This document shows positions 12,085 through 55,117 of a DNA stretch of 64,000 nt, piece by piece. The stretch comes from an uncultured Acidobacteriota bacterium. Lineage in GTDB: Bacteria > Acidobacteriota > Vicinamibacteria > Vicinamibacterales > CAVVIG01. The stretch lies in contig CAVVNL010000021.1 in the NCBI GenBank assembly GCA_963749565.1, forward strand, positions 14,111-78,110, in the 5' to 3' direction. The notes beneath the pieces were generated by a model. That model was given only the letters and a program-made list of their open reading frames with translations, was not told where the DNA came from and ran no database searches. A program made the translations under genes and the position numbers. Numbering within the stretch: the first letter of the stretch is position 1; each line of letters opens with the position of its first letter.

Positions 12085-13229
12085 ATGCGTGCCCTTTCGG
12101 AGCTGATCGACAGCTACAAGCGAGACGCGCCGATCGGGCACGCGTCCACCATTCCTGCCGCCTGGTACACCGATCCCCGGCTGATGGACCTGGAACGCCG
12201 CACGGTGTTTGCCCGTTCGTGGCAGCTCGCCGCTCGCGTCGATCAACTGCACGCAGCCCGGCCGGTACGTCACCTGCGAGCTCGCCGCCGGCGAGCCGGT
12301 GGTCGTCGTCCGCGACGATGCCGGCGAGGTACGCGGCTTCTTCAACGTGTGCCGTCACCACGCCGCGGCCGTAGTGACCGAGCCCGAAGGCGCCGCATCC
12401 GTCCTCCGCTGCCCGTACCACGGATGGACGTACGGGCTCGACGGTCAGCTGAAGGGCACTCCGGACTTCGCCGGCGTCTGCGACTTCGATCGCTCGGCGA
12501 ATGGTCTGGTTCAGGTCGAGACGGCGGCCTGGGAGAAATGGATCTTCGTCAGGCTCGAGCAGGGATGGTCCCTCGCTGGAGCGATTCCCCGGTTCCGAGC
12601 TTTCGACCCGGATCGAGAGTCTCGGGCTCGGGACGCTGCGCTGGATGGAGCGGCGCCACTACACGCTGGACTGCAACTGGAAGGTGTTCGTCGACAACTA
12701 TCTCGACGGGGGCTACCACGTGCCCCATCTGCACAAGGGCCTCGACAGCGTCCTCGACTACAGCACCTACACGATCGAGAACGGCGAGCGTTTCTGCCTG
12801 CAGTCGAGCCCGATCGTCACCGACGGGGCCGAGGCGCGAACCGGCGCCGTGCGAACGGGCGACCGGGCGTTCTATTACTGGATCTATCCGAACTTCATGA
12901 TCAACTGCTACGGCGGCGCAATGGACACGAATCTCGTCATCCCCCGCGCGATCGACAGGACCGACGTGATCTTCGATTTCTATTTTTCGGACGTCTCGGA
13001 ACAGGCGCGCGCGCGCAACCGCGCGAGCATCGAGGTGAGCGAGCAGATCCAGGATGAAGACGTCGCGATCTGCACGTCGGTCCAGCGTGGGTTGCGCTCC
13101 AGGGCATACACGGCGGGCCGGCTGTCGGTGCGCCGCGAAGCGGGGGAACACCTGTTCCATCGGCTGCTGTACGACGATCTCAAGGCCGGCCTTATCGCGG
13201 ACCAAGCAGGAAGTAGCGCAGGACTTTAG
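12085..13229 (+). CDS. Rieske [2Fe-2S] ring-hydroxylating oxygenase alpha subunit-like protein
   Basis: Rieske motif CRHHAAAV…CPYHGWTY (ORF 12209-13057 frame). N-terminus in ORF 12085, catalytic domain in ORF 12501-13229 (…NYLDGGYHVPHLH…). There are two frame breaks (about 12230 and about 12560). Confidence 0.8.
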
Positions 13230-13292
13230 TCCTGCCCGCTGATGTAGCGCAGGACTTTAGTCCTGCCCGTGATGTAGCAGGACTTTAGCGCG
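13213..13292. repeat. Tandem array (2.6 units of about 30 nt) of REP-like hairpin GCAGGAC-TTTA-GTCCTGC
   Basis: Units at 13213-13243 and 13244-13273, plus a partial unit at 13274-13292. The TAG stop of the Rieske gene (13227-13229) lies in the loop of the first hairpin. Confidence 0.85.
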
Positions 13293-23340: not shown

Positions 23341-24451
23341 TGTCAGTTCGTCGTGCTGCGTGCTCGATGACGTTGTAGAGCGTGTCGCGCTCGACCGGCT
23401 CGCGGCCGGCGGCCCTGATGAGGCGCTCGATCTCGCGCGGCGTCATCGCCTCGGGCGTGCGCGCGCCGGCCATGTGATAGATCTTCTCTTCCTGCACGGT
23501 CCCGTCGAGATCGTCCACGCCGAACCACAGCGCCGTCTGCGCCACTTCGACGCCGGTCGCAATCCAGAACGCCTTGACGTGCGGGATGTTGTCGAGCATC
23601 AGCCGCGACACCGCGTGGACGCGCAGGCTGTCGGCCGCGCTCGGCGCCGGCAGCTTCCGCATCTGGTTGTTGTCGGGGTGGAACGCCAGCGGGATGAACG
23701 CCTGAAAGCCGCCGGTTTCGTCCTGCAGCGCCCGCGCCCGCAGCATGTGATCGACGCGCTCTTCCGCCGTCTCGATGTGCCCGTACAGCATCGTCACGTT
23801 GCTGCGCATGCCGAGGCGGTGAGCGGTGCGATGGATCTCGAGGTAGCGCTCGGTGCCGCACTTGTCGTGGGCGATCTTCCGGCGCACGCGGTCCGCGAAG
23901 ATCTCGGCGCCGCCGCCCGGCAGCGAGTCGAGCCCCGCCGCCATCAGCTCGCGCAGCACCTGCTCGTCGGTCATGCCATACAGGTCGGCGAAGAACGCGA
24001 TCTCGACCGCCGTGAAGCACTTCAGGTGGATGCCGGGACGGATCCGCTTGAAGCCCCGCAGCATCTCCGTGTAGTAGTCGAACGGCAAATCGGGGTGCAG
24101 GCCGTTGACGACGTGGACCTCGGTGAGCGGCTGGTGGGCGCGCTTCCGCAGCTTGTCCCACGCCTCCTCGAGCGACATCGTGTACGCGCCCGGATCGCCC
24201 GGCTTGAGCCGCGCGAACGAGCAGAACAGGCAGCTCGCCACGCAGACGTTGGTCGCTTCGAGGCGGATGTTGTAGTTGTAGAAGGTGCGATCGCCGTGGC
24301 GCTTCTCGCGCTCCCGGTTGGCCAGCGCGCCGACGGCCAGGAGATCCGGCGCCTCGAACAGGCGGACGCCGTCGTCCAGGTCGAGGCGCACGCCGGCGTC
24401 GAGCTTGTCTGCGATGTCGAGGAGGCCGGCGGAGGCGAGGCGAGCTTGCAA
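23291..24451 (-). CDS. Radical SAM futalosine-pathway enzyme, MqnE-like (aminofutalosine synthase) or MqnC
   Basis: CxxxCxxC cluster motif (NVCVASCLFCSF) with family-typical …LHPDLPFDYY…, …GGGAEIF…, …MLYGHIET… A TTG start at 24451 is proposed (upstream residues are repeat-encoded). The C-terminal tail is repeat-encoded. Confidence 0.7.
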   Translation of the reverse strand: MQARLASAGLLDIADKLDAGVRLDLDDGVRLFEAPDLLAVGALANREREKRHGDRTFYNYNIRLEATNVCVASCLFCSFARLKPGDPGAYTMSLEEAWDKLRKRAHQPLTEVHVVNGLHPDLPFDYYTEMLRGFKRIRPGIHLKCFTAVEIAFFADLYGMTDEQVLRELMAAGLDSLPGGGAEIFADRVRRKIAHDKCGTERYLEIHRTAHRLGMRSNVTMLYGHIETAEERVDHMLRARALQDETGGFQAFIPLAFHPDNNQMRKLPAPSAADSLRVHAVSRLMLDNIPHVKAFWIATGVEVAQTALWFGVDDLDGTVQEEKIYHMAGARTPEAMTPREIERLIRAAGREPVERDTLYNVIEHAARRTDIWALGLWAQAGLKPIA

Positions 24452-24546
24452 TCGGGTAATCGGGTAATCGGGTAATTGGGTAATTGGATTGCTCAATTGC
24501 CACAATCAATTACCCGATTACCCGATTATCCAATTACCCAGATTGC
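24449..24546. repeat. Long word hairpin built from GGGTAAT(C/T)G units with CAATTG-containing centre
   Basis: The left arm atcgggtaatcgggtaatcgggtaattgggtaattggattg and the right arm caatcaattacccgattacccgattatccaattacccagat flank the loop ctcaattgccac. Confidence 0.85.
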
Positions 24547-24553
24547 CGTGCCG

Positions 24554-25057
24554 TCAGGAGATGCCGAAGATCTGGATTCGCAGCGACCGCGCGCGCGGGC
24601 CGTCGAGCTCCGCCATCAGGATGCGCTGCCATTGCCCGAGCACGACTTCCCCGCCGCTGACCTGCAGCGTCAGGTTGTGGCCGAGGAGCAGGGCGCGGAG
24701 ATGCGAGTCGGCGTTCATCCGATCGCAGTCGGAATGATCCGGATTGTTGTGCAGCCACTCGGCGTCGCGCGCGACCATCTGCTCGAGGAAGCGCTTGATG
24801 TCGGAGAGCAGCGCCGTCTGGAACTCGTTGATGAAGAGGGAGCAGGTCGTGTGCATCGACCAGAGGCTGACGAGCCCTTCGCGCATGTTGAAGCGCTTCG
24901 ACGAACTCCATCACCTGATTGGTGAGGTCGACCAGCTCGATCCGCTGATCGGTCTGATGACCAGCGTCTCGCCATGAATCGTAAGGCCGCCAACCGTCGC
25001 TGTCGCCACCTCTTCGACGGGCCGCTCGCGAACGGTGACGGTCGAACTCTTGCTCAT
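24554..25057 (-). CDS. yjbQ: YjbQ/UPF0047-family protein (secondary thiamine-phosphate synthase)
   Basis: …WSMHTTCSLFINE…HLRALLLGHNLTLQVSGGEVVLGQWQRILMAELDGPR… (ORF 24554-24886). The N-terminus MSKSSTVTV… (ATG at 25057) is in other frame(s). There are frame break(s) at about 24890-24960. Confidence 0.75.
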
Positions 25058-25194
25058 GCGGGTTCCTCTTGGCTGTTATGGAGTGTCCAGGTGCGAACAG
25101 GACATGTTACGCAAAAAGATGCACCCTGAGGCAACTCGCGCCTTCCGGTATACTCCGGCTAGTCCGGGCCTCGTACCGGACACTTACGATACCT

Positions 25195-25440
25195 TGACGT
25201 TCGCCCCGGCGGCCACGCGAAGTGGGTGCGAAGCCCACACGGTCCCGCCACTGTAAGCGGCTAGCGACGCTACGCTCTGGTCCCTGGTTCCTGGTCCTTC
25301 GTGCTTGGTCAGGTCCTTGGTCCCGCCACTGAGCCGCTGGCTTGGGAAGGCGCACGTAGATCGCATCGATCCGCGAGTCAGGAAACCTGGCCATCGGGGG
25401 CGTCCTTTTCCCGGCGCGCAAGACGCCGGAAGGAGCCCGG
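25195..25440 (+). promoter_or_regulatory. Cobalamin (B12) riboswitch with candidate SD-sequestering platform
   Basis: Core elements: GGTGCGAAGCCCACACGGTCCCGCCACTGTAAGCGG (25224-25260), GCCACTGAGCCGCTGGCTTGGGAAGGCG (25324-25351) and the B12 box AGTCAGGAAACCTGGCC (25376-25392). These are followed by the hairpin GGCGTC…GACGCC and the SD GGAAGGAG before the ATG at 25441. Confidence 0.8.
25276..25325. repeat. Direct word repeat (GGTCC(C/T)TGG units) inside the riboswitch variable region
   Basis: Sequence is ctggtccctggttcctggtccttcgtgcttggtcaggtccttggtccc, lying between the CTGTAAGCGG and GCCACTG riboswitch elements. Confidence 0.7.
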
Positions 25441-26118
25441 ATGAGCGTTGTCCCCCCCAAGCCGCGCGCCGCGATCTCATGGAGCGGCGGCAAAGACAGC
25501 TGCGCGGCGCTGCAGCGTGCGCGCGACGCGTTCGACGTCGTGGCCATGATCACGATGTTCGACGAGGACGCCGCGCGCAGCCGCTCCCACGGCCTGCGGC
25601 CCGAGGTGCTCGCGGCGCAGGCCGATCGCCTCGGGCTCCGCCAGGTCATCGGCCGGTGCACCTGGGCGACCTACGACGCGTGCTTCGCGCAGGCCCTTCG
25701 CGAAGTTGCATCCGACTCCGTCACGCACGTGATCTTCGGCGACATCCTGTTCGACGAGCACCGGCGATGGGCCGAACGCATGTGCGAGGACGCCGGCCTT
25801 GCGGCCGTCGAGCCGCTTTGGGGCTCTTCGACGACGACGTTGTTTCACGAATGGGTGGCGTCGGGCGCCGACGCGCTGATCGTCACGACGCGCGCCGCGC
25901 TGCTCGACGACCGCTGGCTGGGCCGGCGACTGAGCGCCGACCTGCTTCCGCTGTTCGAGCAGCTCGGCGTCGACCCCTGCGGCGAGCGCGGTGAATACCA
26001 CACGGTCGTCACCAACAGCCCGTTGTTCTGCCGGCCCCTGAAGCTGCGCGCGAACGGCTCGGTGCAGCGCGCCGACTGCTGGGCGCTCGACATGGTCCCC
26101 GATGCTGCGGGCGAGTGA
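25441..26118 (+). CDS. DUF71/COG2102 PP-loop ATP pyrophosphatase (Dph6 N-domain-like), copy 1
   Basis: Intact 225 aa. It has the PP-loop SWSGGKDS and the family C-terminal motif DPCGERGEYHT. It is the first gene after the riboswitch. Confidence 0.8.
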   Translation: MSVVPPKPRAAISWSGGKDSCAALQRARDAFDVVAMITMFDEDAARSRSHGLRPEVLAAQADRLGLRQVIGRCTWATYDACFAQALREVASDSVTHVIFGDILFDEHRRWAERMCEDAGLAAVEPLWGSSTTTLFHEWVASGADALIVTTRAALLDDRWLGRRLSADLLPLFEQLGVDPCGERGEYHTVVTNSPLFCRPLKLRANGSVQRADCWALDMVPDAAGE

Positions 26119-26967
26119 CATCACGTTCTCGTATGGGCGCCGTCCGGCCGACGAAATCCGGCTAAAGCCGGACACCACGTACCGCAGGCTGACGGTCCGG
26201 CTGAAGCCGGACACTACGCACGGGACGCGTACGTCCTGAAAGGGGTGTCGCTCGAGGTCAAGCGCGGCACGATCGTCGGCCTGCTCGGTCCGAACGGCTC
26301 CGGCAAGACGACGCTGCTGCGCATCATCTCGGGCGTCCTGAAGCCGCTCGCCGGACGCGTGTGGCTCGACGGACGGCCGATCGAGCAGCTGACGCGGCGC
26401 GATCTCGCCCGCCGGGTCGCGGTCGTGCCGCAGGAAACGCACTCGACCTTCGACTTCAGCGTGCTCGACATGGTGCTGATGGGCCGGTACCCGCACCTCG
26501 GCCCGTTCGAGCTCGAGGGCGCCGCCGACCAGGAGATCGCGCGGGACGCGCTGCGCGCCACGGGCACGGCCGCGCTCGACACGCGGGCGTTCGCCACCTT
26601 GAGCGGCGGCGAGAAGCAGCGCGTCGTGATCGCGAGCGCGCTCGCGCAGGCGTCGGACATGCTGCTGCTCGACGAGCCGACGGCGGCACTCGATCTTCGC
26701 TATCAGTTCGAGATTGCGACGCTGCTGCGGGGGCTGAACGTGGAGCGCGGCACGACGATGATCGTGTCGACGCACGACCTGAACCTGGCGGCGGCGCTCT
26801 GCGAGCGCATCGTGCTGCTCAAGCAGGGGCGGGTGCTCGCCCAGGGGCCGACGCGGGAGACGCTGACGGCGGAAAACATCCGCTTGCTCTACGACGTCGA
26901 CGCGGACGTGCAGTTTCATCCGCGCGCCGGTCACCTGACGGTGGTGCCCATTGCCCGAACGAGCTGA
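26102..26967 (+). CDS. ABC transporter ATP-binding protein, BtuD/FepC-type (5' end interrupted by REP-like insert)
   Basis: MLRASDITFSYGRRP (ATG at 26102) is followed by an insert of about 86 nt, then …VLKGVSLEVKRGTIVGLLGPNGSGKTTLL…LSGGEKQRV…LLLDEP… (ORF 26245-26967). The two parts are in different frames. Confidence 0.75.
26157..26212. repeat. Two REP-like stem-loops (TCCGGC-TAAA-GCCGGA and GTCCGGC-TGAA-GCCGGAC) inside the ABC ATPase 5' coding region
   Basis: Elements at 26157-26172 and 26195-26212, each followed by ACAC(C/T)ACG. In one frame they translate as the low-complexity peptide RLKPDTT. Confidence 0.8.
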
Positions 26968-27997
26968 GGCGATCGCCGGATTCCGGCCGCGCACGCCGAT
27001 TCGACGCCGGCTGATGTGGACGCTGGCGGGTTTCGGCACGCTCGCCGCCGGCGCCTGCCTGCTCGCGCCGCTCGTCGGCAGCACGCGCATCAGCCTGGCC
27101 GCGGTGTTCGACCGGTCGATCCCGTACGCCGACAACATCGACGCGCAGATTTTCTTCGTCGCGCGGCTGCCGCGCGTGCTCGCCGCGGCGCTCGTCGGCA
27201 GCGCGCTGGCGCTCTCCGGCGTCGTGTTTCAGGCGCTGCTGCGGAACCCGCTGGCGTCGCCCGACACGCTCGGCGTCTCCGCGGGCGCGTCCCTCGGCGC
27301 GATGATGGCGATCACCTTCGACCTCGATTTCTCGCTGCTCGGCATCTCGGCCGTGCCGCTGGCGAGCTTCTCCGGGTCGATCGGCGCGCTGGCGATCGTG
27401 TACGGCCTGTCGGCGGCCAGACGGCGCGGAACCTCCGCCGTCGTGCTGCTGCTCGGCGGCGTGACGCTGCACGCTGCTGCTGTCGGCGGTCATCGCGTTC
27501 GTGCAGTACCTGGCGGATTTCACGCGAGACGTTCCGCAACGTGCGCTGGCTGATGGGATCGCTCGACGTCGCCTCCTTTTCGCCGATCGTCGCGGCGCTC
27601 GTGCCGATGGCGATCGCGTGGGCCGGATTCGCCACGCTGCCGCGGGTGCTCGATCTCATCAGCGTCGGCAGCGAATCGGCCGCCGCGCGCGGCGTCAACG
27701 TCGAGCGGACGGAGCGCGTCGCGCTCGTCAGCGCGTCGCTGGCCACCGGCGCCGCGGTGTCGCTGGCGGGCCCGGTCTCGTTTGTCGGCATCATCGTGCC
27801 GCACCTCGTGCGGCTGATCGTCGGCGCGGATCATCGGCTCGTGCTGCCGGCGTCGGCGCTCTTCGGCGCCGCGTTTCTCATCGGCTGCGACCTCGTCGCG
27901 CGCACCATCATCGCGCCGCTCGAGCTGCCGGTCGGCATCGTCACCGCCATCATCGGAGGCCCGGTATTTCTTATGGCTGCTGTTCCGCCGCGCATGA
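26951..27997 (+). CDS. FecCD/BtuC-type ABC permease
   Basis: …RLPRVLAAALVGSALALSGVVFQALLRNPLASPDTLGVSAGA… (ORF 26951-27553), then …GPVSFVGIIVPHLVRL… (the 27016-28635 frame). The terminal FLWLLFRRA* is in a third frame (TGA at 27995-27997). There are at least two frame breaks. Alternative start: ATG at 27014. Confidence 0.8.
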
Positions 27998-28874
27998 AGC
28001 TCGTTCGCGTCGATCGCGCTCGTCGTCCTTGCAGGCTCGCGGCGTCTCTCGAGGCCGCGGGCGCCGGCGCCCAGAGCGCCGAGGGACCCCGCCGCATCAT
28101 CTCGCTCGTGCCCGCGACGACCGAAATGCTGTTCGCGATGGGCGCAGGCGACCGGGTCGCCGGCGTCAGCAACTACGACCGCTTTCCGCCGGAGGTCGCG
28201 CGGCTTCCGCGCGTCGGCGGACTGCTCGATCCGGACGTCGAACGGGTGCTGTCGCTGAAGCCGGACCTCGTCATCGTCTACGACACGCAGACGGATCTGA
28301 AGCGGCAGCTCGAACGCGCCCGCATTCCGATCTTCGGCTACCGGCATCGCGACCTGCGGGACATCACCGAGACGATGCGGGCGCTCGGCGCGCGCATCGG
28401 CGCCAGGGCTGCCGCGGACGCCGCGGCGAGCCGCATCGAACAGCAGCTGGCCGCCATCGGGACGCCGCGTCGCAGGCCGGCCGAGGCCGAAAACGCTGCT
28501 CGTCTTCGGGCGGGAGCAGGGCACGCTGCGCCACATCAACGCGAGCGGCGGCTACGGATTCCTCCACGACGTCCTCGAGCTCGCCGGCGGCGCCAACGTG
28601 CTCGCCGATCTGCACGAAGCAGGCGGTCGACATGAGCACGGAGATGGTCCTGACGCGGGCGCCCGAGGTGATCCTCGAGCTGCACTACGGCGATTCGCTC
28701 AGGCCCGAGCGGCTGGGCCCGGAGCGGCTGGTGTGGAACGCGCTCGCGTCCGTCCCGGCGGTGAGAACCAATCGCGTCTACCTGCTCGGCGGCGACGAGT
28801 TCGTCGTCCCGGGGCCGCGGATCGTGATCGCGGCGGAACGGTTTGCGCGGACGCTGCACCCGGAGGCGCGATGA
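27994..28874 (+). CDS. Periplasmic cobalamin/siderophore-type substrate-binding protein (BtuF-like)
   Basis: ATG at 27994 overlaps the permease stop (ATGA). …RRIISLVPATTEMLFAMGAGDRVAGVSNYDRFP…LKPDLVIVYD… The C-terminal part is in ORF 27501-28874 (…RTNRVYLLGGDEFVVPGPR…). There are several frame breaks. Confidence 0.75.
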
Positions 28875-28900
28875 CGTGGCCGACGCCCGAATCTGGTCAT

Positions 28901-28950
28901 CTGGTCATCTGGTTATTTGGTCATTGATTGGGGATTTGGGTCGATTGTTG
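28901..28950. repeat. Left arm of GGTCATCTGG-word inverted repeat flanking the four-helix-bundle gene
   Basis: aatctggtcatctggtcatctggttatttggtcattgattggggatttgg is near-identical to the reverse complement of 29346-29395. Confidence 0.85.
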
Positions 28951-29315
28951 AGCGCAGGTTGGTGCGGGCAGTGCGCAGCGAGCTTCGCGAAGATCGCGCG
29001 CAACTCGCTCGCTTCGGCGCGCGCGGGATCGCACGTCGAGACGGCGAGAAGCTGCGACTTCGGTCGATGACATCGAGCCAGTAGACGCGATTCGTCGGTT
29101 TCTTCGACGACGATCTGAGCTTCGCGATGAACTCGAGCTCGCGAGCGAGCGCTGCACGCAGCGCGATAGTTCGCGCCGACTGACGTGGCACTTTTTGCCA
29201 ATTGTCGGCCGATAACCTGGCCGCAGGCGCATGAGGAAACTTGTCGATCAGCCGTAAGACCGTGAGCGCAAAAGAGATCGTCCGTTGCTTTCAATTGCTC
29301 GCTCTGAGCGCTCAT
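28905..29315 (-). CDS. Four-helix-bundle protein (23S rRNA IVS-protein / Avd-like family)
   Basis: …IGRQLAKSATSVGANYRAACSARSRA (ORF 28905-29357), then EFIAKLR… and …VYWLDVI… (the 28913-29191 frame), typical of TIGR02436-type proteins. There is one frame break near 29130. Both ends abut repeat arms. Confidence 0.65.
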   Translation of the reverse strand: MSAQSEQLKATDDLFCAHGLTADRQVSSCACGQVIGRQLAKSATSVGANYRAACSARSRARVHREAQIVVEETDESRLLARCHRPKSQLLAVSTCDPARAEASELRAIFAKLAAHCPHQPALNNRPKSPINDQITR

Positions 29316-29345
29316 AGCGATCGATTCACATACATGCCAGTCGTA

Positions 29346-29395
29346 CCAATCCATCAATCAATGACCAGATAACCAGATGACCAAATGACCAAATG
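29346..29395. repeat. Right arm of GGTCATCTGG-word inverted repeat
   Basis: Sequence is ccaatccatcaatcaatgaccagataaccagatgaccaaatgaccaaatg. Confidence 0.85.
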
Positions 29396-30080
29396 TATGA
29401 TTTCCTGGTCGAGCGGCAAGGACAGCGCGTGGATGGTGCACGTGCTGCGGCGGCGTGGTGACGTGCAGCTGGCTGGATTGTTGACGACCATCAACGAGGC
29501 CGCGGAACGGGTGGCGATGCATGCGGTGCGTGTCGACGTCCTGGAGGCGCAGGCAGACGCACTGGGGCTGCCGCTGTGGAAGATCCCCATTCCGTCGCCG
29601 TGCCCGAACGAGGTCTACGAGCGCGCGATGGGTGCGGCGGTCGCCCGTGCCGTCGCCGAGGGCTTCACCCACATGGCGTTCGGCGATCTGTTCCTCGAGG
29701 ACGTCCGGCGCTATCGGGAGGAACGGCTCGCGGGCACGGGGCTGACGCCGCTGTTCCCGCTCTTCGGCGCCGACACGGCAGCGCTTGCCCGCGACATGAT
29801 CGCCGGTGGCCTTCGTGCCCGCATCACCTGCCTGGATCCCAAGGTGATCGATCGATCGTTTGCCGGCCGGGAGTTCGACCACGCGCTTCTGGCGGAGCTC
29901 CCGCCGGCAGTCGATCCGTGCGGCGAGCGCGGCGAGTTCCACACCTGCGCCTACGCGGGCCCGATGTTCCACCACCCCGTCCCCGTCGAAACGGGCATCA
30001 TCGTCGAGCGGGACGGGTATGTCTTCACGGACCTGACGTTGGCGACAGAATCCAGTCAATCTGGTCATTTGGTCATCTAG
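29385..30080 (+). CDS. DUF71/COG2102 PP-loop ATP pyrophosphatase, copy 2
   Basis: PP-loop SWSSGKDS and C-terminal DPCGERGEFHT. The first 4 codons and the last 10 or so are repeat-encoded (a start at ATG 29397 is also possible). Confidence 0.8.
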   Translation: MTKCMISWSSGKDSAWMVHVLRRRGDVQLAGLLTTINEAAERVAMHAVRVDVLEAQADALGLPLWKIPIPSPCPNEVYERAMGAAVARAVAEGFTHMAFGDLFLEDVRRYREERLAGTGLTPLFPLFGADTAALARDMIAGGLRARITCLDPKVIDRSFAGREFDHALLAELPPAVDPCGERGEFHTCAYAGPMFHHPVPVETGIIVERDGYVFTDLTLATESSQSGHLVI

Positions 30081-30161
30081 TCATCTGGTCATTGATTGGG
30101 GGATTGAACGGCTCAATCTTCCAATCAATGACCAGATAACCAGATAACCAGATGACCAAAT
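30057..30161. repeat. Long word hairpin (GGTCATCTGG units, arms of about 40 bp)
   Basis: ctggtcatttggtcatctagtcatctggtcattgattgg, then a loop containing GATTGA-acggc-TCAATC, then ccaatcaatgaccagataaccagataaccagatgaccaaat. Confidence 0.9.
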
Positions 30162-30176
30162 ATCCGCAATCGGATT

Positions 30177-30947
30177 GTGTGTCTCACCGAGGAGACCACC
30201 GAGACGCTGTACCTCCTTGGCGAAGGCGACCGCGTGGTCGGTGTGTCCGGATACACCGTGAGGCCGCCTGAAGCGCGCAGCAAGCCGAAGGTATCCGCAT
30301 TCATCAGCGCGAAGTTCGACCGCATCGAGGCGCTCCGTCCCGATCTCGTGCTCGCGTTCTCCGACCTGCAGGCGGACATTTCCGCCGAGCTCGTGAAGCG
30401 TGGCATCGCCGTCATGACGTTCAACCAGCGCACCGTCGCCGAGATTCTGCAGATGATCCAGATCGTGGGCGGGCTGGTCGGCTGCCAGGATCGAGCCGAA
30501 CAGCTGGTAAATCGCCTGACCGCGAATCTCGATCGGATCCGCGAGTCGGCGGGGCGCTTTCCGACCCGGTTGCGAGTCTTCTTCGAGGAGTGGGACGACC
30601 CGTTGATCTCGGGGATTCGATGGGTCGAGGAGCTGGTCGCGATTGCGGGCGGCGATGCGATTTTCCCCGAGCTGGCTGAGGCGCGCCTCGCACGCAACCG
30701 TATCGTGGCCGTTTCAGAGGTTGTCCGGCGGAACCCGGAGGTGGTGTTCGCCTCGTGGTGCGGCAAGAAAGTCCAGGCGGCGAGGATCCGCGAACGAGAC
30801 GGCTGGGATCGCATCAGCGCGGTGGTTCACAACCGAATCTTCGAGGTCAAATCGACGTACATCCTGCAGCCGGGCCCTGCGAGCCTGACGGAGGGCGTTG
30901 GCCGGATTCATCATGTTCTGTGCCAGCTCCATGGCCTGTCCCCTTAG
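30177..30947 (+). CDS. BtuF-like cobalamin-binding protein lacking a signal peptide
   Basis: It begins directly with the first beta-strand (R-I-)VCLTEETTETLYLLGEGDRVVGVSGY… …LRPDLVLAFSD… and is intact. GTG at 30177 (ATT at 30174 is possible). The upstream in-frame stop at 30150-30152 leaves no room for a signal peptide. Confidence 0.75.
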   Translation: MCLTEETTETLYLLGEGDRVVGVSGYTVRPPEARSKPKVSAFISAKFDRIEALRPDLVLAFSDLQADISAELVKRGIAVMTFNQRTVAEILQMIQIVGGLVGCQDRAEQLVNRLTANLDRIRESAGRFPTRLRVFFEEWDDPLISGIRWVEELVAIAGGDAIFPELAEARLARNRIVAVSEVVRRNPEVVFASWCGKKVQAARIRERDGWDRISAVVHNRIFEVKSTYILQPGPASLTEGVGRIHHVLCQLHGLSP

Positions 30948-30996
30948 CTGTTATCCTTTACGTCCATAATGTCCTTGTGATGATCGAGCGCGGCGC

Positions 30997-33900
30997 ATGA
31001 TGCCCCTCTTCCTTCACGCGCCCACCCGCCGAATGGCCCGCACGGCCCTCCTGTGCGCGTTGTCGCTCGCACTTTCCTCTTCCCCGCTTTGGGCCGGGGC
31101 ACTCTCGGAGGATGTACCTGTTCCAGGCGGGACGGCGGCGTTGGCCCGTGTGCTCGGCCTCGACCCGGCCCCCGAGCGCGCACGGTTCATGACCGAGCTG
31201 ACGCGCGTCGTCTACGACACGCCCGAAGGGACGAGCGCGGACACTGATGCGTTGTCGCTCCGGCTAACCAGCTACCTGCAGGCGATCGATCAGCTGCAGA
31301 AGGCGCTCACCGCCGTGCAACCAGTCGGAGGGTCGATCGCGTTGTCGATGGCGCGGAGCAGGAACGACCGCCGGCGGCTGGAGACCTTTCTCCAGACCGT
31401 GGGTCTCCGTCTCCGCGAGCGGAACAAGGCGTTCACCGTCGAGCGGCTCGACACCACGCAGGCGGAAGAGCGCGTCGCCATGCTCGCCAGCCTCGGGATC
31501 GAAGTAGAACAGCTCGCGGCGCGGTTGAACGGCGGCGAAGGTGTCCGCGTGGAAGTCCGAACCGAGACCGTTCCGGTACCGCTTACCCTCAAGATCTGGA
31601 GCGGCGCGGTCCTCCGGCAACCGGTGGGAATCGGAGATCTGTTTGCGACGCTCATCGGCGATCGGCAGGCGGCGCTCCTCAGCCACGGTCTCGCCGCGCT
31701 CGACGACGAGACGCTCGCCTTCCTCGGCGATCGCCCGGCGCTGCTGCGTGGATTTTACGAACGCGACGCGGCGGTGTTCGCGGCCTTCGCTGGAAGCCTG
31801 CGCATCCGGAACAACGCACTCGTTCTGCCGGGCGGCGATGCCGCGAGACCGCTTTGGGAGGCGGCGGTCGGCGAACCGGTCGCCAGGCCGGACCGCTTCA
31901 TCCGAGAGCTGTTCGCGCGGGCCGAGGGTCGCGTCGCGTATCTATACGACGCATTCGCCAGGTTCGACACTCCGACCCGGGCGTTCGCGCTGGGACTCTG
32001 GATGGAGGGCCCGATTCGCCGTGTGGAACGGTTCGAGGCCCTGGTCAATTCTGTGGCCGCATTCCCCGGATGGACGTTGCCGGAGCGGTCCTTCCGGCGT
32101 CCACCCGACGATCCAGTGCTGATGCTCCTCCGCGTCCCGGCAGAGGCGAACGGCGAGCCGAAAGCTCCCTCCTGGCGTGCCTTCTGGTCGCAGGTCTTCG
32201 AGAGCAGCGACATCCCGGACGATCCAGAACGCCGGGTAAGGAACGTCCAGGAGGACGGCCGCATCGACGCGGGATGGCTTGCCGAATCTGGTACTGGCCG
32301 CCGACCTGCCGTCGCGTGGCGAGCGACTCGACCAGCTCGCGTTCGGCCTGCGCGCCTTCGCCGCTTCTGACGATCGCATGCTGGCCGACATGCTGGTTGC
32401 CGTCCGGGCCTTTCCACGCTACCGCATGCTGATGCTTACGCTCGAACGCATGGGCATTGCGAATCCGGCGGTCTATGCGGCAGCCGCACGGCACGCCGTC
32501 CGCCTATCGGATCTCGGTGCCGAACGCGGGTTCGTCGCGCTCGGCCAGTTCCAGGGCGCGCTCGCGATCCTGGCGAGACAGGCGGATGCGCAGGTTCTCG
32601 ACGCCGCACGGACGGAATCGCTGGTCACGTCGTTGTCGGCCGTCCCGCTCACAGATGGGGCCTACGGCGGCGGCATCGCGCGCTGGCTCCGGGACTCGCT
32701 CGCCCCGCTCGCGGGCATCGAGGCCGGCGACGTCGACAACTTCGACAGGGAGCTCATCGCGTCGCTCGCCGGCCGGCGCCCGGGCGCGTCTCTTCCCCCG
32801 ACGCTCGTGTCCTGGGAGCAGAGGACGTACGCGCTCGATCTGCCGACATCGGAGGCCCGGCGCCTGACGCGCGTGCTCGAAATACTGCAGGCCGATCCCG
32901 TCAGCCTGGCGCTGGCTGTGGAAGCAGTCGCGGAACAGCTTTCGAGCCCGAGCCTCACCCTCGCGCAGGTGCAGGAGGCCGCGGCTGGACTGAAGGCTCT
33001 CCAGAGCGCACTCGATGCGCGGCCAAATCGGCAGGACATCGTCCGGCGGGCGATTCGGGATCTCTCGGAGGTGACGGCACCCAGGGATCTCCGAGACGCC
33101 GCCAAGGTTGCCGATTCCGTCTACGCGCTTGTCGACGATGTGCTCGCGGGCACGTTGATGTCGGTCGCGTACGCCCTTCACTCCGGCGTGCCTCAGGGAA
33201 CAGCGCTCGCGTCCAGCGTCGTTCGCCGGCACGACTTCGGCTTCGGCGACAACAGCCCGGACTCGCGCGTACGAACGGCGTGGGTCGAGCCGGTTCAGAA
33301 GATCCAACCGGGCGTCCCCTGGCACGTGAGCGGCTCGCTGCTCGGGCTGGACCTCGGGCTCTCGTCGCTGGCGCTCCGCCGCACGTCGCTCGGCGCACTG
33401 CCTGGACCGCCGACACTCAGGTCCGCGGACAAGGACATCTTCACGAAGACTGTCGCGCTGCTCAGTGTATTCAGGCTGCGCGACACCGAACGCGACGCGA
33501 TCGCCGCGGCCATCGCGCGAGGGCGCGAGCGTGTCGACGGGCTTGCCGCCCGCCCGGACGCTCTGGCCGCGATCGCGAACGACATCGCACTGGACGGATG
33601 GCGGCGCCGCGCCGTCCAATGGTCGCTCGTGAACGACCCGCAGCGGGTGCCGAGCTACTTTTCGCTGGCCGAGCTCGTCCAGCTCGGGGAGCCGAACGCG
33701 ATGGCCGGCCTCCACGCGTGGGGAATGGCGGCGGCTTGCATGTGCACAGCACTGACGCCGCCGGGGCAATGGATGCTCGACGCCGGCCGCTGGCCGCGCG
33801 GCTCGGTGGCCACGCACGTGGCCGATCTCAATCTGCGCGTTGCGGTTGCGCTGAACGAGCTGAAGCTGCCGGCGGCGCTCGCCAAAGGGGTGCTGGCGGC

Positions 33901-48660: not shown

Positions 48661-48671
48661 TTTTGCGAGTG

Positions 48672-48790
48672 TACTATACCGGGGGGACGGGTCTCCGTAC
48701 CGGTACGGGGGCCTGTCCCCCTGTACTGGTACGGGGCCTGCCCCGTTACTGGTACGGGGACCTGTCCCCCGTACTGTACGGGTGCCGGCG
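48672..48790. repeat. Palindromic word cluster (GTACGGGG / CCCCGTAC units)
   Basis: ccgtaccggtacgg (perfect palindrome), ggtacggggcctgccccgttac and ggtacggggacctgtcccccgtac form several adjacent hairpins between the PilB-like stop and the next gene start. Confidence 0.75.
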
Positions 48791-51449: not shown

Positions 51450-51470
51450 GTCCCCCTTCAACGCACGCAA

Positions 51471-51537
51471 ACCACGAAGTCGCGAAGATCACGAAGCGCT
51501 TGGTACTTTTCGTGTGCTTCGTGTCTTCGTGGTTTAC
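51471..51537. repeat. Word hairpin (CACGAAG / CTTCGTG units) between hscA and fdx
   Basis: AAACCACGAAGTCGCGAAGATCACGAAGCGC … CTTTTCGTGTGCTTCGTGTCTTCGTGGTTT. Confidence 0.85.
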
Positions 51538-53375
51538 AGTCGATCGATAGACTTTCCCGCCAGCGCGGCGTGGACCGAACGGTTCATCATCACCTCCGCC
51601 AGGTGCTGCGTGGCTTCGTTCAACGCGTGCGTCTTTTTCTGAATGAGCTCGCGATCCGGTCCGTTCAGAACCGATTTCAGCCCGGCCAGCTCCGCCTCGA
51701 TGCGCTCACGCTCGCCGGCGGCCAGCTCGGACTCGGCGATCGCCGGGAATTCGGGAGACCGGAGCGACTTCTCCGTCGCGCGCATCACCGACTCCGCTTC
51801 GTTGCGCGCCTCGATCAGCAGGCGCGCCGCGAAATCGGCTTCCGCGTTCTCGAACGAATCGAGCAGCATGCGCTCGACTTCCTCGTCGGTCAGCCCGTAG
51901 GACGGCTTGACCTCGATCGTCTGCTCGACATCCGTCCGCAGCTCGCGGGCGGTGACGCTCAGGATGCCGTTGGCGTCGATCTGGAACTGCACCTGGACCC
52001 GGGGCATGCCGGCAGGCATCGCGGGAATCCCGCGGAGCTTGAACCGCGCCAGCGAGCGGTTGTCGTCGACCAGCTCGCGCTCTCCCTGCAGCACGTGGAT
52101 GTCGACGGACGTCTGGTTGTCGACGAAGGTCGTGAACATCTCGCTGCCGGTCGCCGGGATGGTGGAATTCCGCATGATGATCTTCGACATCACGCCGCCC
52201 ATCGTCTCGATCCCGAGCGACAGCGGCGTCACGTCTAGCAGCAGCATCTCGCGGTTGCCGGTCATCAGGATGTCGGCCTGCACGGCCGCGCCGAGCGCGA
52301 CGACCTCGTCGGGATTGAGCTCGCTGTGCGGCGTCTTGCCGAACAGCTCGCCGACCAGACGACGAACCAGCGGAATGCGGGTCGAACCCCCGACCAGGAC
52401 CACTTCGTCGATCTGCGACGCCTCGAGCTCCGCATCGGCGAGCGCCTGACGGCACGGCTCGAGCGTGCGCTCGACGATCGGACGGATCGCCGCCTCGAGC
52501 TCGGTGCGGGTGATCCGCCGGCGATAGTCGCCAAGGGCGATCTCGGTTTCTTCGTTGTCGGACAGATCGAGCTTGGCCCGGATGACGGCCTGACGAATCG
52601 CCTGCACCTCGCCGCCGGTCGACGCAATCCGGCTGAAGCCGGATCCCGCATCTCCCAGGATCTGTTCCATCAGGATCAGGTCGATGTCGTCGCCGCCGAG
52701 GTGGGTGTCGCCGTTGGTCGACAGCACCTGGAAAACGCCGTCTTCGACCCGCAGAATCGAAATGTCGAACGTGCCGCCGCCGAAATCGTACACGGCAATC
52801 AGGCCGGCGTGGCGCTTGTCGAGGCCGTACGCGAGCGAGGCCGCAGTCGGCTCGTTGATGATGCGGAGGACGTCGAGGCCGGCAATGCGCCCGGCGTCGC
52901 GCGTGGCGGTCCGCTGTGCGTCGTTGAAGTAGGCGGGCACGGTGATGACGGCCCGGTCGACCTCCGGATCGATCTCGCCCTCTTCGGCGAAGTGCGCCTC
53001 GGCGCGGCGCTTGAGCTCTCGCAGGATGAACGCCGAGACCTCCGGCGCCGTGAACTCGCGCGCTCCCAGCCCGATCTTGACGATTCCTCCCGGGTCGCCG
53101 GCGAGGCGGAACGGGAACAACCCCGCTTCGTCGCCGACATCGTGCACGCCTTTCCCCATGAAGCGCTTCACCGAGTAGACGGTCCGGCCCGGGTCGGTCA
53201 GCAGCCGACGTTCGGCCTCGCGGCCGACGAAGACGGTGTGGTCCTCCGAAACCGAGACGACCGACGGGACGAGGCCGTCGCCGCTGCGATCGCGGATCAC
53301 GACGGGCACGCCGTCCTTGACGTAGGCGACGAGGGAGTTGGTGGTGCCGAGATCGATGCCGACTGTTTTGCTCAT
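51534..53375 (-). CDS. hscA: Fe-S chaperone HscA (Hsp70 family)
   Basis: [19 protein letters not shown]…[12 protein letters not shown]…[10 protein letters not shown]… Intact. Confidence 0.9.
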
Positions 53376-53385
53376 GCTGAGAGAA

Positions 53386-53468
53386 TCTCCACCACGGAGG
53401 CCACGGGGGACACGGAGGAACAAACCCGTACGTTTTGACCTCCGCGTCCTCCGCTTCCTCCGTGGTAG
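53386..53468. repeat. Word hairpin (CGGAGG / CCTCCG units) between hscB and hscA
   Basis: CCACCACGGAGGCCACGGGGGACACGGAGGAAC … GACCTCCGCGTCCTCCGCTTCCTCCGTGGTAGG. Confidence 0.85.
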
Positions 53469-53475
53469 GTAGTCT

Positions 53476-54180
53476 TCATGCCGTTAGCTCCCGCTCGATC
53501 CCCTCGAGCAGGTTGTTGATGTAGTTCCGCTCGAGCACTCGCTCGCGGAGGGCGCTCAGGATCGCCTGGCGCTCGGGGTCGTCTCCCTGGGATCCGGAAG
53601 CGGCGCCGAACGCGTCCCAGCGCGCTGACAGATCCTTCAACTCTGCCTCGTGCGCCGCCCGCTTGGCCTCAATCGGGGCGCGGGCGCGTTCGAGCCTCGC
53701 CCGCCACACGTCGGCGGCGGCGCCGCCGCTGCGGAGATCGCGCACCTCGTCGAGCTCTTCGTTGAGGGAAAAGACCTCTTCGAGCATCGTCGCCGGCACC
53801 GAGTCCTGCGCCCGTGGCGAAAACCCTTCGAGCCCGAGCAGGTATTCCGCGCGCGCGATCGGGTTGCGAAGCGTGCGATACGCGTCGTTCAGGTACGAGG
53901 ACCGCTCGAGGCTCGCGCGGCGCTCGGCCGGCGTCGCGTTGTAGAAGAAATCGGGATGGAACTGCCGGCTCAGCGTGCGAAAACGCTGCTCGAGATCAGC
54001 GGCGTCAAGATTGAGCCGGCGAGGCACGCCCATGAACGCGAAATAGTCGCCGTGACGGCCGAGGGTCAGGATCTGGCTGCACTGCGGACAGAAGTGGACG
54101 TCCACCGGCGCCCCACCGCCGCAGTTCCTGCAGTCCTGAAGCGTCCGGGTCGTGATTGGGGAAGACATAGAAAATGACAA
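53476..54180 (-). CDS. hscB: Co-chaperone HscB with N-terminal zinc-ribbon
   Basis: CRNCGG…CPQCSQ, then a J-domain (…[15 protein letters not shown]…[10 protein letters not shown]…) and a C-terminal helical domain. Confidence 0.8.
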
Positions 54181-54238
54181 GTCTCAACTGTCAAGTCTGA
54201 AGTCTCAATGAGACTTGAGACTTGAGACTTGAGATTTC
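54176..54238. repeat. Word hairpin (GAGACTTGA / TCAAGTCTC units) between iscA and hscB
   Basis: acaagtctcaactgtcaagtctgaagtctca-a-tgagacttgagacttgagacttgagattt. Confidence 0.85.
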
Positions 54239-54239
54239 C

Positions 54240-54566
54240 CTAGGCTCCGAAAGAGCTGCCGCACCCGCAAGTGGTCTTCGCGTTCGGATTGTTGAAGACG
54301 AAGCCTTTGCCGAGCAGGTCGGTGTCGTATTCGAGGACCGTCCCGTTCAGATAGAGAAGGCTCTTCTTGTCGACGAAGATCTTGGCGCCATCGGCGCCCT
54401 CGAAGATCTCGTCACCCATTCGCGCCTGCTTCTCCCACGAGAAGGTGTAGCTCAGGCCCGAGCATCCGCCGCCCTTGACGCCGACACGCAGTCCCCCCTC
54501 GGCGATGCCCTGCTTGGCCATCAAGGTGCGGATCTTCCGTGCGGCGTTCTCGCTGATCTCGATCAT
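54240..54566 (-). CDS. iscA: A-type Fe-S carrier IscA/ErpA
   Basis: …GGGCSGLSY…NPNAKTTCGCGSSFGA. Confidence 0.9.
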   Translation of the reverse strand: MIEISENAARKIRTLMAKQGIAEGGLRVGVKGGGCSGLSYTFSWEKQARMGDEIFEGADGAKIFVDKKSLLYLNGTVLEYDTDLLGKGFVFNNPNAKTTCGCGSSFGA

Positions 54567-54570
54567 GGTC

Positions 54571-54999
54571 TTACGCAGTCGGCTGCGCGTGCGTCCCGGC
54601 CGGCGTGGTCTTCGCGCCCTGCTGCTTCTTCTTGTAGTCGGAGATCGCCGCCTTGATCGCGTCCTCGGCGAGCACCGAACAATGAATCTTCACCGGCGGC
54701 AGGCTGAGCTCGGCCACGATGTCGGTGTTCTTGATCGCCAGCGCCTGGTCGACGGTCTTGCCCTTCAGCCATTCGGTCGCGAGGCTCGAGCTCGCAATCG
54801 CCGAACCGCATCCGAAGGTCTTGAACTTCGCGTCGTCGATGAGCCCGGTTTCCGGGTTCACCTTGACCTGAAGCTTCATGACATCGCCGCACTCGGGCGC
54901 ACCCACCAGGCCTGTGCCAACGTTCGGATCTTCTTTCGGCAGCGATCCGACGTTGCGCGGGTGTTCGTAGTGCTCGATTACCTTTTCCGAATAAGCCAT
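54571..54999 (-). CDS. iscU: Fe-S scaffold IscU
   Basis: MAYSEKVIEHYEHPRNVG…GAPECGDVMKL…FGCGSAIASSS…LPPVKIHCSVLA…. Confidence 0.92.
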   Translation of the reverse strand: MAYSEKVIEHYEHPRNVGSLPKEDPNVGTGLVGAPECGDVMKLQVKVNPETGLIDDAKFKTFGCGSAIASSSLATEWLKGKTVDQALAIKNTDIVAELSLPPVKIHCSVLAEDAIKAAISDYKKKQQGAKTTPAGTHAQPTA

Positions 55000-55015
55000 T
55001 TCTGCTCCTCAACTC

Positions 55016-55106
55016 AATCTGGTCATTTAGTCATCTGGTTATCTGGTCATTGATCGGTCAATTGATCAATCAATGACCAAATAACCAGATGACCAGATGA
55101 CCAAAT
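55016..55106. repeat. Long word hairpin (GGTCATCTGG units) between iscS and iscU
   Basis: caatctggtcatttagtcatctggttatctggtcattgatcggtcaattgatcaatcaatgaccaaataaccagatgaccagatgaccaaat. Same family as 30057-30161 and 28901/29346. Confidence 0.9.
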
Positions 55107-55117
55107 TCATGATCGCA

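Follow-up and report, generated by a model that had tools for sequence, protein, structure and literature searches.

Results

A 4HB gene between inverted word arrays in a cobalamin operon

We describe an element found in a stretch of 64,000 nucleotides from an uncultured bacterium of the Vicinamibacterales (Acidobacteriota; contig CAVVNL010000021.1, positions 14,111 to 78,110), hereafter the window. The element lies in an operon headed by a cobalamin riboswitch, with the order DUF71-1, btuD, btuC, btuF-1, site A, DUF71-2, site B, btuF-2. At site A, a gene of the four-helix-bundle (4HB) family TIGR02436/PF05635 is placed on the minus strand between two inverted arrays of short words (the arms); at site B, the same words form a hairpin that contains no gene. 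In our opinion, the region 28891-29394 is best explained as a decaying hairpin cassette similar to the intervening sequences (IVS) of rRNA, in which the 4HB gene is bracketed by inverted GGTCATCT arrays and which is exchanged by recombination in the arms. We assign this interpretation a probability of about 0.55.

The arms of locus A, each 57 nt long, occupy 28891-28947 and 29338-29394; their complementarity is 82%, and 390 nt lie between them. A preliminary description, made from the letters of this stretch alone, placed them at 28901-28950 and 29346-29395 as near-perfect reverse complements; the arms are real, although their span and the degree of complementarity had to be corrected. Each arm consists of four tandem 8-nt units of the GGTCATCT type and an inner stem. 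In the left arm, the words ATCTGGTC (twice), ATCTGGTT and ATTTGGTC are followed by the inner stem ATTGATTGGGGATTTGGGTCGATTG; in the right arm, the inner stem CAGTCGTACCAATCCATCAATCA is followed by ATGACCAG ATAACCAG ATGACCAA ATGACCAA and AT. When joined by a linker, the arms fold with -80 kcal/mol. The last word of the right arm, ATGACCAAAT, provides an in-frame ATG (29385) for DUF71-2, whose N-terminus reads MTKCMISW, and the stop of the 4HB frame (TAA, 28913-28915) comes from the left arm.

Two gene-less hairpins of the window are built from the same words. Hairpin B (30059-30161) has arms of 49 nt that are 86% complementary and a 5-nt loop, and folds with -65.4 kcal/mol (z -11.5). Hairpin C (55016-55107), at the iscS/iscU boundary on the minus strand, has arms of 46 nt that are 87% complementary, and folds with -63.9 kcal/mol on the operon strand (z -12.5). 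The assignment of the locus A arms to one family with these two contiguous hairpins is confirmed by a three-way alignment, which is collinear: locus A equals B or C with about 400 nt added in the loop, and the outer ends AATCTGGTCAT...ATGACCAAAT are common to all three. With at most one mismatch allowed, the word GGTCATCTGG is counted 18 times in the window, where 4.4 occurrences are expected; none of 100 shuffles reaches this count, and 15 of the 18 occurrences fall within the six arms of loci A, B and C. In one metagenome relative, iscU is joined to iscS without the 118 nt that contain hairpin C. In soil metagenomes, the depth over the locus A arms is far above that of the flanks.

Family and state of the 4HB gene

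The gene extends over 28913-29315 on the minus strand (ATG at 29315-29313) and has a GC content of 42-60%, against about 70% in the flanks. The earlier statement that the loop is one minus-strand gene of the TIGR02436 type was right as to the family; as assembled, the gene is not intact, and the peptide quoted for it (SATSVGANYRAACSARSRA-EFIAKL ... YWLDVI) is spliced from two frames and does not represent one protein. The assembled open reading frame (ORF) of 150 aa (28905-29357, minus strand) scores 16.7 bits against PF05635, below the cut-off of 33.8, and the family-like residues switch among all three minus-strand frames. Compared to the nearest intact alleles (loci L001 and L002; such numbers designate loci of relatives), eight indels that change the frame and one deletion of 3 nt are present in the window copy; when this copy is read in the L001 frame, 107 of 140 positions are identical to the orthologue and no stop occurs. 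Considering that the frame-corrected copy scores 70.3 bits against TIGR02436 (cut-off 24), the family assignment is right; scores of 65-74 bits are obtained for the intact orthologues at this site. The locus is a member of the TIGR02436/PF05635 family, and a pseudogene as assembled.

The frame-joined reading has 1553 homologues, the best of them 78% identical (E 1.6e-43). The profile of the clade matches PDB 2RLD, deposited with five chains, with E 1e-21. In the alignment of the clade (A1), the residues S45...N49-Y50-R51 (SATSVGANYR) are invariant, and the final E of the conserved family motif GxxRxxxSxxxNxxE (PMC3936711) is replaced by A, S or C. Purifying selection acts on the intact copies: the ratio of nonsynonymous to synonymous substitutions (dN/dS) is 0.06-0.24 with saturated dS, and 0.07 for the best pair.

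Two candidate observations on the 4HB gene were rejected. A series of six strictly alternating +1/-1 frameshifts would have hinted at selection for an open frame; the alignment gave eight indels that do not alternate. A second 4HB remnant at 24211-24327, by the hairpin at 24450, was considered on the basis of weak tblastn matches with 114 queries; the match (E 0.2-1) is out of frame, rich in alanine and arginine, and due to chance.

The indels are found upstream of the cassette as well. Within 26951-28874, btuC (FecCD family) is split into four frame pieces by three frameshifts, and btuF-1 (Peripla_BP_2 family; 27973-28874, plus strand) into three pieces in three frames by two frameshifts, with window-specific +G insertions at 28459 and 28612. 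Despite these five single-base indels, the pieces retain 81-96% amino-acid identity to the proteins of L001. The ATPase gene upstream of btuC and the two genes downstream of the btuF-1 block are intact. The cassette interior was sought in public runs for a check of the indels and was found in none; the metagenome contigs belong to relatives diverged by 5-12%, and one metatranscriptome contains only fragments from relatives and hairpins of other loci, and provides no transcript ends or joints for the locus described here. Given the broken neighbours, the high ratio of indels to substitutions in the cassette and the failure to find its interior in any public run, the block from btuC to the 4HB gene may be in recent real decay or may be affected by a local assembly error.

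Filled, tight and remnant states in relatives

Both junctions were classified in about 40 species by a scan of one genome per species with DUF71-2. Five of the closest 4HB homologues were examined (P0003, P0004, P0005, P0009 and P0013); all lie at the same Peripla_BP_2/Diphthami_syn_2 junction, antisense to the operon. The same arms are present in four of them (L001-L004); the fifth contig is known from its gene list alone. L003 is a near-identical relative (99% protein identity in DUF71-2 and 98% in btuF-2), and its 4HB gene is intact with 130 aa.

Site A is filled in the window and, among its soil relatives of the Vicinamibacterales, in L001-L004, L012, L015, L016, L032, L059 and L087-L089. 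The preliminary description considered that orthologous loci might carry the gene without the arms, or that the arms might be an assembly artefact; all of the listed relatives keep the arms, and their assemblies are independent. In L088 (1094-1627), the gene runs in the sense direction and is frameshifted close to the 3' end, which suggests an inversion or a re-insertion through the inverted arms. L013 retains both arms and the last 35 codons of the 4HB gene; L007 and L026 retain only right-arm words, and L020 a single word. In about 20 species the junction is tight, with an ATGA overlap of stop and start, no arm, and a DUF71-2 N-terminus MKTLV. These species include the deepest branches of DUF71-2; the insertion at the btuF-1/DUF71-2 junction is therefore a derived state, and the junction was originally tight. 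The site A states form a decay series: an intact gene, a frameshifted gene, the 35-codon remnant, the right arm only, a single word.

DUF71-2 starts with the word ATGACCAAATGY (MTKC) in all site A loci that are filled or carry an arm remnant, and in no locus with a tight junction. The word-derived start is found in 15 of 38 rows and requires at least six changes on the DUF71-2 tree; with shuffled labels, the mean number of changes is 12.2. The other end of DUF71-2 (Diphthami_syn_2, PP-loop; 29397-30080, plus strand) also involves an arm, with its stop TAG (30078-30080) lying inside the left arm of hairpin B. For btuF-2 (Peripla_BP_2; 30177-30947, plus strand), the ATG in L003 and most relatives comes from the last arm word (MTKYP..., pattern MT[KR][YF]P...). 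The window copy has one extra base (CCGCAATCGG versus CCGAATCGG), which puts the arm ATG out of frame, and the first start is GTG at 30177. In the same way, 57 of the 120 closest 4HB homologues end in [IMV]T[RK] and a stop, which is the translation of the arm ...AT(G/A)ACCA(G/A)ATGA. The arms outlast the gene, and their ends serve as start or stop codons of DUF71-2, btuF-2 and the 4HB gene. In part, the arms would outlive the gene because their terminal words became start or stop codons of the neighbours.

At site B, the hairpin is complete in the window, L003 and L001. Only a right-arm array is present in L002, L004, L015, L016 and L059 (degenerate in L012), and arrays of other words are present in L007, L010, L011, L017 and L021. 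In L027 (the same as L006) and L029, site B is filled: the same words enclose a 4HB gene on the sense strand, the right boundary is identical to the base, and site A is tight. A side observation concerns L002 (320-450), where site B contains two same-word arrays in direct orientation, separated by 12 nt, in place of a hairpin.

The general cassette residing in a helix loop, for which the preliminary description saw the hairpins as targets, remnants or carriers, is supported by the decay series at site A and by the filled site B of L027 and L029. Whether hairpins are targets or remnants, the data fit both, with recombination in the arms as the route.

Arms and gene as a probable unit

All cassettes with GGTCAT/ATGACC words belong to one 4HB clade (support 97/95). 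This clade spans the antisense genes of site A, the sense gene of site A in L088, the sense genes of site B, and the unrelated locus L005, where the 4HB gene is next to a gene of a CCA-adding enzyme and between two complex hairpin arrays of the ATGAC type. As to the structure of L005 (2500-3700), a complete hairpin stands on each side of the gene and is made of higher-order units of about 40 nt with ATGACYCG/ATGAACCA words; the arms themselves are hairpins.

The preliminary description also raised the possibility that other 4HB paralogues of the genome have no flanking inverted arms. Among 79 more distant metagenome relatives of this clade, inverted arrays flank 66 above the threshold (the 99th percentile of displaced control intervals), compared to 2 of 172 controls. 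Nearly all of these arrays are made of 7-8-nt words, which differ between loci.

These data bear on a rival explanation, according to which the hairpins are primary: they would be punctuation of operons generated by the host (e.g., by slippage or foldback) in the manner of repetitive extragenic palindromic (REP) sequences, and the 4HB gene would be a passenger with no functional tie to them. It agrees with the gene-less hairpins of many words at cistron boundaries of the window (21278, 24450, 51469, 53382, 54172, 60454, B and C) next to one 4HB gene, with the commonest state of site B in relatives, a single non-inverted array upstream of the start codon, and with the heptamer arrays of Xanthomonas and Nostoc, published without an associated gene (PMC4692102). 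Nevertheless, we consider it unlikely. Against it stand the excess of armed relatives over controls and the finding that the GGTCAT word accompanies a single 4HB clade to three unrelated sites. In addition, a cassette has left arrays behind in L013, with its gene remnant, and in the arm-only loci, and about half of the close homologues have a stop codon built from the arm.

Probable recombination in the arms

The identity of the window to L003 changes along the locus: it is about 93% upstream, falls to about 80% within the cassette, and reaches about 99% in the stretch from the right arm to the end of btuF-2. The cassette interior is closest to the L001/L002 allele while the flanks are closest to L003. 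On this basis, the interior was probably exchanged, and one of the breakpoints would lie at the right arm; another possibility is that the contig is a chimera of strains joined there. Both gene orientations occur at site A, as would be expected for an interior that can be integrated or flipped through mutually inverted arms.

The inner stems vary by lineage and nevertheless remain complementary, in three variants: ATTGATTGG/CCAATCAAT (the window), CATCGTTGA/TCAACGATG and TTTCTGAGACG/CGTCTCAGAAA. The self-complementarity of arms exceeds that between loci only slightly (32.7 versus 27.8), because the words are common to all arms; the informative part is the co-varying inner stem. The right arm of site A resembles the array of site B more closely in the same genome than across genomes (permutation p 0.0045), and in L015 the two are identical at 32 of 34 positions.

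A misassembly at a repeat, which would produce the arms or the insert, or an accidental complementarity has also been considered. The contig is a mosaic relative to L003 with the identity switch exactly at the right arm, and many single-base indels are present in the block from btuC to the 4HB gene. Such an origin is very improbable, however, since at least 12 independent assemblies have the same gene-between-arms layout at the same junction, the word count is far above that in shuffles, and the folds have z of -11 to -12.5.

Operon context and other repeats of the window

The riboswitch at the head of the operon with cassette A and hairpin B (Rfam RF00174; 25219-25385, plus strand) is the sole Rfam match in 24000-31500. 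The ABC transporter, DUF71 and btuF are the only gene content at the window locus and 15 orthologous loci. In the window, DUF71-2, btuF-2 and the isc genes are intact. A direct, non-inverted array of CTGGTCC-type heptamers (5-6 units) is found at 25277-25330, within the region matched by the riboswitch model; it resembles a word array placed in a variable loop of a structured RNA.

The isc operon on the minus strand (iscS-iscU-iscA-hscB-hscA-fdx; 51469-55107) has word hairpins at four cistron boundaries (55016-55107, 54172-54237, 53382-53475 and 51469-51535), each with a different word of 7-9 nt. A hairpin of the word GGGTAATC (24450-24544, -60.6 kcal/mol) lies on the minus strand between a radical-SAM CofH/MqnC-like gene and a UPF0047 gene; GGGTAATC/ATTACCCG words are also present in L007, L010 and L011, where they occupy site B of the B12 operon. 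Tandem repeats with longer units are found at 13213-13288 (31 nt, 2.6 copies) and 48695-48782 (24-25 nt, 3.5 copies); the second overlaps a palindrome at 48671-48732.

Discussion

The cassette entered a tight btuF-1/DUF71-2 junction in Vicinamibacterales, is inherited vertically with an intact gene under selection, and decays repeatedly. We presume the following course of events. The gene and its arms would form one heritable unit. The arms of about 50 nt, which are inverted copies of one another and also of those in the empty hairpins, would serve as portable homology; recombination or gene conversion in them could exchange interiors between lineages, place an interior into an empty hairpin in either orientation, or cleanly empty a filled one, while random deletions would leave untidy remnants. 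In the operon transcript, the arms may pair into a stem of about 50 bp, which by analogy with the rRNA IVS would be a putative substrate of RNase III, whose action would cut the polycistronic mRNA at the junction. The likeliest role of the 4HB protein would be that of a pentameric binder of nucleic acid on the word arrays.

Several points weigh against this interpretation. The window has one 4HB gene, gene-less word hairpins outnumber it by about 9 to 1, and it is just as conceivable that the clean, small-loop hairpins B and C are primary elements and have always been without a gene. A further caveat is that the 4HB gene of this genome is broken; its pseudogene status comes from one assembly, and the ratio of indels to substitutions in the cassette is unusually high. 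No direct repeat (target-site duplication) shared by the flanks of A, B and C was found, cassette A has no transposase or other enzyme candidate for movement, and no movement between near-identical strains was seen. A scan of 28700-30300 for sigma-70 promoters gave no match for the 4HB gene. Over nine hairpins, folding has no consistent advantage of the sense over the antisense strand; such an advantage would be predicted by selection on RNA. The similarity of arms within genomes is modest and confounded by relatedness. The same applies to two further observations. The 6-mer similarity of arms rises weakly with protein identity, even without homology of the flanks (Spearman 0.20, reached in 0 of 300 permutations); and the cassette's own word recurs in the fetched flanks of 5 of 53 loci, compared to 0.44 expected from the words of other loci.

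The latter two observations, together with the purifying selection, agree with a second rival explanation, in which the 4HB pentamer would be a word-specific factor acting in trans, non-enzymatic or of an unrecognised kind, that maintains or disperses the octamer hairpins. This would resemble the system of REPINs (hairpins of two REPs) and RAYTs (REP-associated tyrosine transposases), with the armed gene as master and hairpins B and C as its non-autonomous partners. The layout corresponds to a RAYT gene that stands between inverted REPs while REP doublets are dispersed elsewhere, and the same words are present at A, B and C of one genome. Each arm has four words and an inner pseudo-word, and five chains are deposited in 2RLD, the closest solved relative; a pentameric state has been described for the family (Lin et al., as cited in PMC3936711). 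No catalytic motif is known in the family, however, and hairpins B and C are well preserved although the only copy of the gene seen here is broken; moreover, the correlations are weak, and relatedness and base composition confound them. We judge a trans-acting factor of this kind to be improbable.

It is tempting to go further: the GGTCATYT hairpins dispersed over Vicinamibacteria genomes and the GGTCAT-armed 4HB gene may be two halves of one system comparable to REPIN/RAYT, where the pentamer reads the 4-5 words of an arm and the gene moves among same-word hairpins, in either orientation, by conversion through arm homology, without a transposase; the rRNA IVS would then be the special case of a cassette placed in an rRNA helix. 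This is a speculative proposal, and we hold it to be possible but doubtful.

Ralph and McClelland reportedly described ORF-bearing IVS of 23S rRNA in Leptospira in 1993. The rRNA IVS is the closest known system, sharing with cassette A an ORF of about 120-130 codons of PF05635/TIGR02436 within terminal inverted repeats that form a long stem. The 23S rRNA IVS of Coxiella burnetii encodes S23p; tandem heptamers adjoin its ORF, which is in reductive evolution (PMC4990558), so that both the heptamers and the decay of the ORF have their likeness here. Like the cassette, the IVS are distributed sporadically, with horizontal acquisition and subsequent vertical descent, and their excision by RNase III has been demonstrated (PMC4990558). 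Unlike the rRNA IVS, cassette A occupies a cistron junction of a protein-coding operon (btuF-1/DUF71-2), its arms are composed of four 8-nt words whose ends are used as start and stop codons of the neighbours, and the same genome contains gene-less copies with the same arms. The link to the rRNA IVS is one of architecture and protein family.

Cassette A shares with REP and REPIN-RAYT systems the short palindromic repeats between operon genes and a gene flanked by inverted copies of the repeat that forms gene-less hairpins. It differs from them in that the gene encodes only a four-helix bundle, not an HUH (Y1) tyrosine transposase, and in that the arms are internally tandem-repetitive, with the word differing from locus to locus. 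The lack of a target-site duplication and of a transposase in the cassette distinguishes it from transposons and miniature inverted-repeat transposable elements.

The four-helix-bundle family (Pfam: PF05635) is related by fold and family to Avd of diversity-generating retroelements. In contrast to the Avd genes of these retroelements, the 4HB gene has no reverse transcriptase and no pair of template and variable repeats nearby; its neighbours are btuF, DUF71 and btuC. Genes of PF05635 are also wedged into cas operons (e.g., between cmr3 and cmr2) and are treated as possibly cas-associated (PMC3936711). Like cassette A, they sit between genes of an unrelated operon; no flanking inverted arrays are described for them (PMC3936711).

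The arrays GGGNATC/GGGGAYT of Xanthomonas and Nostoc are tandem 7-nt repeats, preferably of four units, located between co-directional ORFs near start and stop codons; Xanthomonas has 70-75 convergent inverted pairs of arrays per genome, and the arrays are transcribed and read as formers of G-quadruplexes, with no gene named (PMC4692102). The arrays described here are similar in the count of four units and in their position between aligned ORFs. They differ from the G3-tract heptamer arrays (Rehm et al. 2015) in the 8-nt unit GGTCATCT and in the 4HB gene between paired arrays; no G-quadruplex is expected here because this unit has GG only.

A full-text literature search by family names returned no paper on cassettes of a gene and word arms in operons. 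The element is a cassette of the IVS type outside rRNA; what this locus contributes is a pair of junctions in one operon that occur filled, empty or as remnants, the cassette and gene-less hairpins with the same words in one genome, and the evidence for exchange through the arms.

Three orphans meet at this locus: the '23S rRNA IVS protein' family, the ORF-bearing rRNA IVS, and the intergenic tandem arrays of 7-8-nt words. The first of them comprises thousands of genes for which, to our knowledge, no function is known. One conserved operon in about 40 species provides a natural series from no insert through an intact gene, a frameshifted gene, an internal deletion and an arm alone to a start codon made of a single word; the ends of a cassette can become start and stop codons of essential neighbours. 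If the 4HB genes and the hairpins indeed constitute one system, a very large orphan family would thereby gain a function, and the IVS and the bacterial heptamer and octamer arrays would share a single origin.

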